Part shown: piece by piece, positions 35,098-36,128 of the stretch | How positions within the stretch are numbered: the first letter of the stretch is position 1 | Layout: every line of letters begins with the position of its first letter | UHGV virus genome: UHGV-1497419 | Source of the DNA: a virus | Direction: 5' to 3' (one strand) | DNA length: 64,000 bases | Notes under the pieces: model-generated | The model's input: only the letters and a program-made list of their open reading frames with translations | Database searches by the model: none | What the model was told of the DNA's origin: nothing | Program-made: the position numbers and the translations under genes

Positions 35098-35685
35098 ATG
35101 AAACTGCTAAATATCAAAATCACTGGTACTCGTCCTTTCTTGAGCCATAACGATACGCTGTCAGACCCATTAAACCCTCTGACAAAATATCACAAGTCTC
35201 TGTCCAGTAAACGTAAAAAGACTGACGAAGACTATGCGCTCTTAGCAGAAAGCCAACTGGTAACTTCTTGTTACTACGATGAGCAGCTAGGTTTTGTTAT
35301 GAACGGTGAGATGATTGAGGCTTGCATCAAGTCTGGTGCAAAACTCAACAAACTTGGTAAGGTAATTGACCGAGCCATTATGCTGACAGATGTAGTCTTC
35401 CCAATGACTATCAAGAACTGTCCAGCAAACCCACAAGAACTTGCTAAGAATCCAGACTTTATCTATGCTAAGTCTGTTAAGATTGGCACAGCACGAGTTA
35501 TGAGCTACCGTCCAATCTTCCGTGACTGGTCTGTAGAGTTCGGTTTGATGTTCGATGAAGAGCAAATCACCAAAGAAGAACTCTTAATGGTTCTGGAAAA
35601 TGCTGGTAACCTTTGTGGTGTAGGTGATTGGCGTCCACGCTTTGGTCGTTTTTCTGTAGAAGTTATTTCAGAAGGTAGCGTTTAA
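35098..35685 (+). CDS. hypothetical protein (cassette gene 1, flanked by the GT-rich repeat elements)
   Basis: 195 aa from the ATG at 35098 with GGAG 9 nt upstream. Confidence 0.45.
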
Positions 35686-35687
35686 TT

Positions 35688-36128
35688 ATGAATACAAAAG
35701 CATTAGCAGCAAAGTTTAGTTACGGTGACACTGTATCACACTCTGAGATGGATACCTTCTTAGGTATTGTGAAGCCAACTTATCAAGGTGACATTGTTAA
35801 GTACGAAGATGAAATGAAGGCTTATGCACTTACACGTCTAAACCGACTTGAGAAGTTTATTGAAAAGCTTCTTAAAGAAGAGAAGATTTATCTGGTTGCT
35901 TCAATGGGTGTTGGTTATCGTGTTGTTGAACCTAAGCATCAAGCAACTATTGCAAAACGTAAAATGTCTGGTAAGATTGGTCGAGCTTTAAAGCAAGCCA
36001 CTCAAGCGATTGAGAATGTGAACACTATGGCACTTAGCCATCAAGAACGTTCACGACTGATTGAACAGCAAAACCACTTAGCTGCTATGAAAGCTAACAT
36101 TAACAAGCAACGTAGAAAACCTTTCTAA
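35688..36128 (+). CDS. hypothetical protein (cassette gene 2)
   Basis: 146-aa ORF, 2-nt gap from the upstream gene. Confidence 0.45.
   Translation: MNTKALAAKFSYGDTVSHSEMDTFLGIVKPTYQGDIVKYEDEMKAYALTRLNRLEKFIEKLLKEEKIYLVASMGVGYRVVEPKHQATIAKRKMSGKIGRALKQATQAIENVNTMALSHQERSRLIEQQNHLAAMKANINKQRRKPF

Follow-up and report, generated by a model that had tools for sequence, protein, structure and literature searches.

We assign positions 34690-36408 of the window, by which we mean the whole 64-kb stretch of viral DNA analyzed here, to a type II VIPR (Viral Interference Programmable Repeat) locus of a Felix O1-like phage, with a probability of about 0.93. The system is already known, and its description is so far found in preprints of April-June 2026 only. 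According to two bioRxiv preprints, VIPR combines Vipr, a minimal RAMP-like protein of about 20 kDa, with a vap accessory gene and with vrRNAs, each composed of 9-16 GGY/NN pentamers and a structured tail (bioRxiv 10.64898/2026.04.26.720920, 10.64898/2026.04.26.720927). They present SUSP1 as the experimental model, in which the vrRNAs are expressed as small RNAs, co-purify with Vipr, and silence matching DNA, and for which filament formation, an R-loop triplex, transcriptional silencing, and enhancement by Vap1 are reported; the guides have also been reprogrammed experimentally, and the discoverers propose that VIPR predates CRISPR (bioRxiv 10.64898/2026.04.26.720920, 10.64898/2026.04.26.720927). 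VIPR is a recently described way of recognizing DNA by means of guide RNAs. The window contributes four further guide sequences and confirms, independently and by computation, the wobble-aligned code with its 1-nt skip.

The locus has every sequence-level defining feature of type II VIPR and lacks those of CRISPR-Cas and of partition systems. The source phage is a Felixounavirus (Felix O1-like myovirus); SUSP1 is a Suspvirus. DNA polymerase and ligase genes precede the locus, and its other neighbors are small ORFs and the genes for DHFR and ThyA. A 1.9-kb stretch around the locus matched 257 phage records at 80-96% identity, mostly of Escherichia and Salmonella Felixounavirus, in which the VIPR genes are mostly labelled hypothetical and the guide genes are labelled as plain repeats or, once, as a partition site.

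An earlier note on this DNA had described two tightly coupled genes of unknown function. Both ORFs exist as described, at 35098-35685 and 35688-36128 with 2 nt between them, and neither has a match in Pfam, NCBIfam, or PADLOC. Their function is nevertheless assignable: ORF1 is Vipr, for which structures have been solved, and ORF2 is Vap1. PHROGs places ORF1 in phrog_4652 and ORF2 in phrog_5926, both of them families of "unknown function". ORF1 aligns over its full length (residues 1-195) with chain D of PDB entry 36pp ("SUSP1 Vipr protein") at an E-value of 2.6e-127. ORF1 is identical to the Vipr copy of the SUSP1 genome at 190 of 195 residues (97%). Since this identity lies above the >90% criterion used by the VIPR authors, the window locus is placed in the SUSP1 type II clade. 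We checked 13 contact residues, which the cryo-EM VIPR preprint names as reading GGY and clamping the DNA, and found all of them conserved (H17, K33, R39, E71, M72, K82, G87, K88, R138, C173, D177, W178, and R179). The residue given as T175 in the preprint is V175 both in ORF1 of the window and in the deposited SUSP1 chain.

ORF2 shares 145 of its 146 residues (99%) with SUSP1 gp038, which is Vap1. Homologs of Vap1 retrieved by a word-indexed search were near-identical proteins only, and an exhaustive HMMER search returned 234 relatives. A Vap1-like gene likewise follows vipr in two distant VIPR loci (L017 and L018). The AlphaFold2 model of Vap1 (pLDDT of 95) contains a winged-helix-like N-terminal part and a coiled-coil hairpin, and fold comparison with this model gave weak matches only. 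Judged from the model, Vap1 looks like a DNA-binding protein.

The coordinates of the features are collected in Table 1. The specificity of the system is carried by the repeats, and the functional unit therefore extends from approximately 34690 to 36408, not from 35098 to 36128 as the earlier note had drawn it, having missed the 5-nt periodicity of the repeats. The near-consensus promoter that it had reported was confirmed; this is the top-scoring sigma-70-like site between 33 and 38 kb, is found with identical sequence in SUSP1, and carries a promoter annotation in phage AYO145A. A hairpin and a T run do form the terminator that had been proposed downstream, but the unit continues past this terminator, with two further guide genes downstream. 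The flanking repeats at 34760-35021 and 36156-36408 comprise four copies of a 127-148-nt unit and, like the other three elements of the earlier note, are real and beyond chance; what had been taken for borders are guide-RNA (vrRNA) genes, the core of the system rather than neutral or passive edges.

TABLE 1. Features of the VIPR locus and their positions in the window.
Feature	Positions	Strand	Description
Sigma-70-type promoter, TTGACA-16-TATACT	34690-34717	+	11/12 matches; ~60 nt before the first guide tract
Leader box 0 (GAGTCTTTGAAAAGGGTTTTTA)	34758-34779	+	Immediately 5' of vrRNA U1
vrRNA U1	34780-34882	+	Tract 34780-34839, 12 units; tail a (pseudoknot) and U run 34840-34882; NN = GA GG GA TC GA GG AA AT GC GC TT AT
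Leader box 1 (AAAGGGTCTTTAAACAGGGTCTTTTAATAA)	34883-34912	+	Between vrRNAs U1 and U2
vrRNA U2	34913-35021	+	Tract 34913-34987, 15 units; tail b (pseudoknot) 34988-35021; NN = TG GA GA AT GC GG TT TA CC CA AT AT GA GA AT
Orphan leader box (GAGTCTTCTGTTGAGGGTTCTTT)	35033-35055	+	5' of the vipr ribosome-binding site; no guide after it; SUSP1 has one too
vipr	35098-35685	+	195 aa, RAMP-like; ATG start, GGAG 9 nt upstream
vap1	35688-36128	+	146 aa, basic (pI 9.9) accessory protein
Intrinsic-terminator-like hairpin and T run	36140-36162	+	Hairpin 36140-36155; after vap1; conserved in SUSP1
Leader box 2	36163-36192	+	Precedes vrRNA D1
vrRNA D1	36193-36290	+	Tract 36193-36247, 11 units; tail a and U run 36248-36290; NN = TA AT TT TG GT GG AA GT CA TT GA
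Leader box 3	36291-36319	+	Precedes vrRNA D2
vrRNA D2	36320-36408	+	Tract 36320-36374, 11 units, all exact GGT; tail b' 36375-36408; NN = TA TA CT GT AG TA GG TA TT GT AT

Each guide consists of a tract of pentamers, GGY plus a variable NN, with a strict 5-nt period, followed by a conserved tail of one of three types (a, b, and b'). The period-5 GGTNN pattern GGTNNGGTNNGGTNNGGTNNGGT has 17 overlapping matches in the window, all of them within the two intergenic regions, and none in shuffled versions of the window. A tract finder applied to the 64-kb window and to the whole SUSP1 genome detected GGYNN tracts of 11-15 units only beside vipr and vap1. The tracts of U1 and U2 include degenerate units (TGT, AGT, and GCG), exact GGY accounting for 8/12 and 9/15 units, respectively; functional SUSP1 guides likewise carry degenerate units. 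The tails of the window are identical to those of SUSP1. Comparison of tails b and b' supports a two-helix pseudoknot with three compensatory pairs, 97% of cells being paired as against 31-50% when the partner is slid, a covariation that draws on a thin set of four distinct sequences. An Rfam scan of 34600-36600 gave no meaningful match.

When five phages are compared, NN is hypervariable, and GGY, the tails, and the leader boxes are constant. U1 (34780-34839) has exactly the sequence of the first tootiki guide (phage tootiki, L002, 4332-4391), the other three guides being different, and KhF3, tootiki, and AYO145A have their second and last guides in common and differ in the remaining ones. 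From this pattern of sharing among tootiki, KhF3, and AYO145A it follows that guides assort independently as cassettes, and it suggests exchange of guides through recombination, with the conserved boxes and tails as the sites between which it occurs. Among 50,697 phage records there is no intact copy of D1 or D2, and full-length matches reach 87-91% identity at best, so that two of the four guides contributed by the window are without an intact copy in other sequenced phages. In the GenBank record of KhF3 (L001, KT184315), part of the VIPR leader at 4176-4186 is labelled "direct repeat ... possible binding site of StbAB", and other GenBank records treat the guide genes as simple repeat_region features or carry no annotation for them. 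Annotations of the KhF3 type for the VIPR leader and guides look outdated.

Five leader boxes of the form R-GTCTT-N5-8-GGGTYTTTTAA are confined to the VIPR locus, and a hairpin and U run stand before each of them. Four of the five lie directly 5' of a guide tract, and the fifth lies 5' of the vipr ribosome-binding site; matches to the box motif itself span 34758-34779, 34886-34907, 35033-35055, 36166-36187, and 36294-36314. The boxes are conserved in SUSP1, KhF3, tootiki, and AYO145A and absent from the distant loci L017 and L018. They did not qualify as promoters in a scan for the sigma-70 consensus, which also detected no promoter between the vap1 terminator and D1 and D2. The consulted passages of bioRxiv 10.64898/2026.04.26.720920 and 10.64898/2026.04.26.720927 contain no mention of the leader boxes.

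Two further elements were observed at the ends of the locus. An 8-bp inverted repeat, GGTGAGTA at 34706-34713 and TACTCACC at 34738-34745, overlaps the -10 element of the locus promoter with its left arm and is conserved in SUSP1; it could be an operator. Directly 3' of the last guide tail, at 36428-36456, there is a second good sigma-70-like promoter (TTGACA-17-TATTTT), embedded in the palindrome AAGCTATAA...TTATAGCTT. This promoter opens the block of small genes that comes next and forms the 3' boundary of the VIPR locus.

According to the preprints, guides of the SUSP1 clade mostly match a satellite with a baseplate protein similar to SUSP1 gp017 (bioRxiv 10.64898/2026.04.26.720920, 10.64898/2026.04.26.720927). 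Homologs of the SUSP1 gp017 gene, which mark the satellites, were found by blastn in the chromosomes of 474 of 5426 complete E. coli genomes (~9%). We sampled ten satellite loci (L007-L016) and searched each for the NNxNNx pattern of every guide, mismatches being tolerated. The satellites are islands of ~11 kb with genes for a large serine recombinase, a small recombinase, a methylase or HTH protein, and tape measure and baseplate proteins, and the ten occupy four insertion sites (yciI/tonB, a split DUF72 gene beside yecD, ymdF/wrbA, and lafU/dinB). Strains that bear such satellites include E. coli PAR (tonB-type) and PT62 (DUF72-type). Most of the islands also contain 1-2 kb without an annotated gene, e.g., L007 7964-9532 and L010 6471-8104.

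U1 matches the recombinase gene of the tonB-type satellites L007 and L012 at 21/24 NN positions (88%), a score reached by 0 of 300 permuted guides. U2 matches the recombinase gene of DUF72-type satellites at 26/30 positions (87%) in L015 and 25/30 in L009 and L014, again with 0 of 300 permuted guides. The U1 site lies at L007 16217-16183 and the U2 site at L015 12001-12044, and both scores are above the threshold of at least 80% NN that applies to natural targets. For both guides, only a skip of 1 nt works: the best matches with skips of 0, 1, 2, and 3 nt are 16, 21, 17, and 16 for U1 and 19, 26, 21, and 20 for U2. Both sites, at offsets of 1080 (U1) and 762 (U2) from the start codons, are in frame, and the skipped base is the wobble position of the codon. 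BLAST searches with idealized target sequences located the U1 site in 158 genomes and the U2 site in 107, always under a "recombinase" annotation. As a positive control, the SUSP1 guides match the same satellites at 81-92%. On the strength of these sequence matches, at least two of the four guides appear to be directed at large serine recombinase (integrase) genes of E. coli satellites, which points to the satellite integrase as a preferred target. Such targeting suggests that excision of the satellite, and not a later step, is what the phage blocks.

The scores of D1 and D2 are marginal, both at 18/22 (82%) and inside the upper range of the permuted controls (4/300 and 5/300, respectively). 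The best D1 site is intergenic in a satellite, and that of D2 runs antisense to a satellite baseplate gene, its skipped base being the second of the codon; for either guide, the best matches with skips of 0, 1, 2, and 3 nt are 16, 18, 16, and 16. Exact 1-nt-skip patterns of D1 and D2 had 0 matches in viral, genome, and metagenome contig collections. No guide reached a 100% NN match in the ten sampled satellites. The 64-kb window contains no self-target, its best self matches of 15-18 NN being at background level. No relatives of the satellite recombinase were detected in a search of IMG/VR.

One of the satellites, L012 from the E. coli GN4751 chromosome, has a vrRNA gene of its own on the minus strand (5123-5049), without vipr. 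This gene has 13 pentamers, a pseudoknot similar to tail b with compensatory changes, and its own promoter (TTGACG-17-TATAAT). Its guide matches a REP-like palindrome of the host (AGGCCTGATAAGCATAGCGCATCAGGCA) at 21-23 of 26 NN positions in four loci, with the 1-nt skip only; the maximum among permuted guides is 21.

The leader boxes might constitute a second, undescribed layer of the locus, a tentative reading against which we would put the odds. The boxes may be binding sites of Vap1 or a dedicated signal for re-initiation or processing that turns every guide into a cassette of its own. The boxes and the conserved tails could also provide the homology for whole-guide swaps between phages; if this is true, guide swapping would fill, through recombination, the role that adaptation has in CRISPR. 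In the same tentative reading, D1 and D2, for which no convincing match exists, might be aimed at a further, undescribed class of competitor.

Returning to the type II VIPR reading, expression of the vrRNAs, RNP formation, and silencing in this phage are extrapolated from SUSP1. Transcription from the promoter at 34690 would yield U1 and U2 and then vipr and vap1, and D1 and D2, which lie beyond the vap1 terminator, would presumably be transcribed as well. Vipr protomers, one per pentamer, would assemble on a vrRNA into a helical filament that sequesters GGY and exposes NN. The exposed NN would pair with double-stranded DNA, skipping every third base of the target, and the resulting gapped R-loop would block transcription without cutting. 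Vap1, which is basic and winged-helix-like, would enhance the silencing effect. Silencing of the integrase would probably prevent excision of the satellite and, with it, the exploitation of the phage.

The earlier note favored an accessory or counter-defense function. The locus is indeed a self-contained accessory conflict module unrelated to replication, but the evidence speaks for an attack on satellites, not for counter-defense against host immunity. That the two proteins inhibit a host immune system, with the repeats as borders of a mobile insertion, would suit small genes without a family match that sit in an early/replication block under their own promoter; a VIPR guide could, moreover, target a host defense gene, and D1 and D2 have no clear target. 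The repeats, however, show exact guide architecture, U1 and U2 match satellite recombinase genes and not host defense genes, and ORF1 is a structurally solved RNA-guided DNA-binding protein. Because of this protein identity, a counter-defense cassette is already largely refuted, and we regard it as improbable. Still less probable is an RNA attenuation mechanism resembling that of TRAP, in which a multimer would bind the triplets in its own leader and trailer RNA for autoregulation without any target in trans. Eleven GGU triplets at 2-nt spacing do resemble the 11 (G/U)AG repeats of TRAP, and the tracts lie in the operon leader, but Vipr is unrelated to TRAP, and the hypervariable NN spacers match foreign genes far above chance. 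The cryo-EM preprint describes Vipr as an open helical filament that binds DNA targets, and the published reprogramming experiments also speak against attenuation (bioRxiv 10.64898/2026.04.26.720920, 10.64898/2026.04.26.720927).

The least probable of these alternatives, and a very improbable one, takes the repeats as iterons of a replication origin or as centromere repeats of a plasmid-type partition site bound by both proteins. It would explain direct repeats beside polymerase and ligase genes, the strong GC skew of the tracts, and the possible StbAB binding site noted in the KhF3 record, and the modelled Vap1 looks like a DNA-binding protein. Against it, the phage is virulent, ParM/ParR, Rep, or initiator homology is missing, and a variable NN with a fixed GGY is the opposite of conserved iterons; the SUSP1 tracts, according to the preprints, are transcribed into small RNAs (bioRxiv 10.64898/2026.04.26.720920, 10.64898/2026.04.26.720927). 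As a specific candidate, StbAB/ParMR partition was rejected, homology to an actin-like or Walker ATPase and to a centromere adaptor being absent and the repeats being variable instead of conserved.

Compared with the VIPR locus of SUSP1, the window locus has the same promoter, terminator, leader boxes, and three tail types, and each has four guides. In both phages, the locus has the ligase gene on one side and, on the other, small genes that precede those for dihydrofolate reductase and thymidylate synthase, and the predicted prey is the same satellite family. The two differ in guide layout, with two guides upstream and two downstream in the window and one upstream and three downstream in SUSP1, and in their NN codes, all four guides of the window being different from those of SUSP1.

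Class 1 CRISPR-Cas, with its Cas7 filament on crRNA, resembles VIPR, according to the preprints, in that a RAMP-fold protein oligomerizes along the guide RNA, bases are flipped periodically by a thumb, and DNA is recognized by RNA guidance via an R-loop. VIPR differs from it by the pentamer guide with two informative bases per unit, the 1-nt-skip reading, and a mode of recognition that needs no PAM, and also by being carried by a virulent phage and aimed at satellites. The window contains no CRISPR array, cas1/cas2, or nuclease; whereas a CRISPR array consists of identical 25-40-nt repeats with unique spacers, the units of the window are 127-148 nt long and have an internal 5-nt period.

Vibrio phage ICP1 carries a phage-borne CRISPR-Cas system directed against PLE, a chromosomal satellite that parasitizes ICP1. 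As in the window, a lytic phage has an RNA-guided system aimed at a chromosomal satellite. The ICP1 system, however, is a complete type I-F CRISPR-Cas, capable of adaptation and of degrading DNA, whereas the window has a single 22-kDa protein, which would silence without cutting as in SUSP1, and no evident acquisition machinery.

The likeness to TRAP (trp RNA-binding attenuation protein), a multimer that binds 11 (G/U)AG repeats with 2-nt spacers, is formal only. TRAP has an unrelated fold and forms a ring, not a filament. Its spacers are uninformative, whereas in VIPR the spacers are the information.
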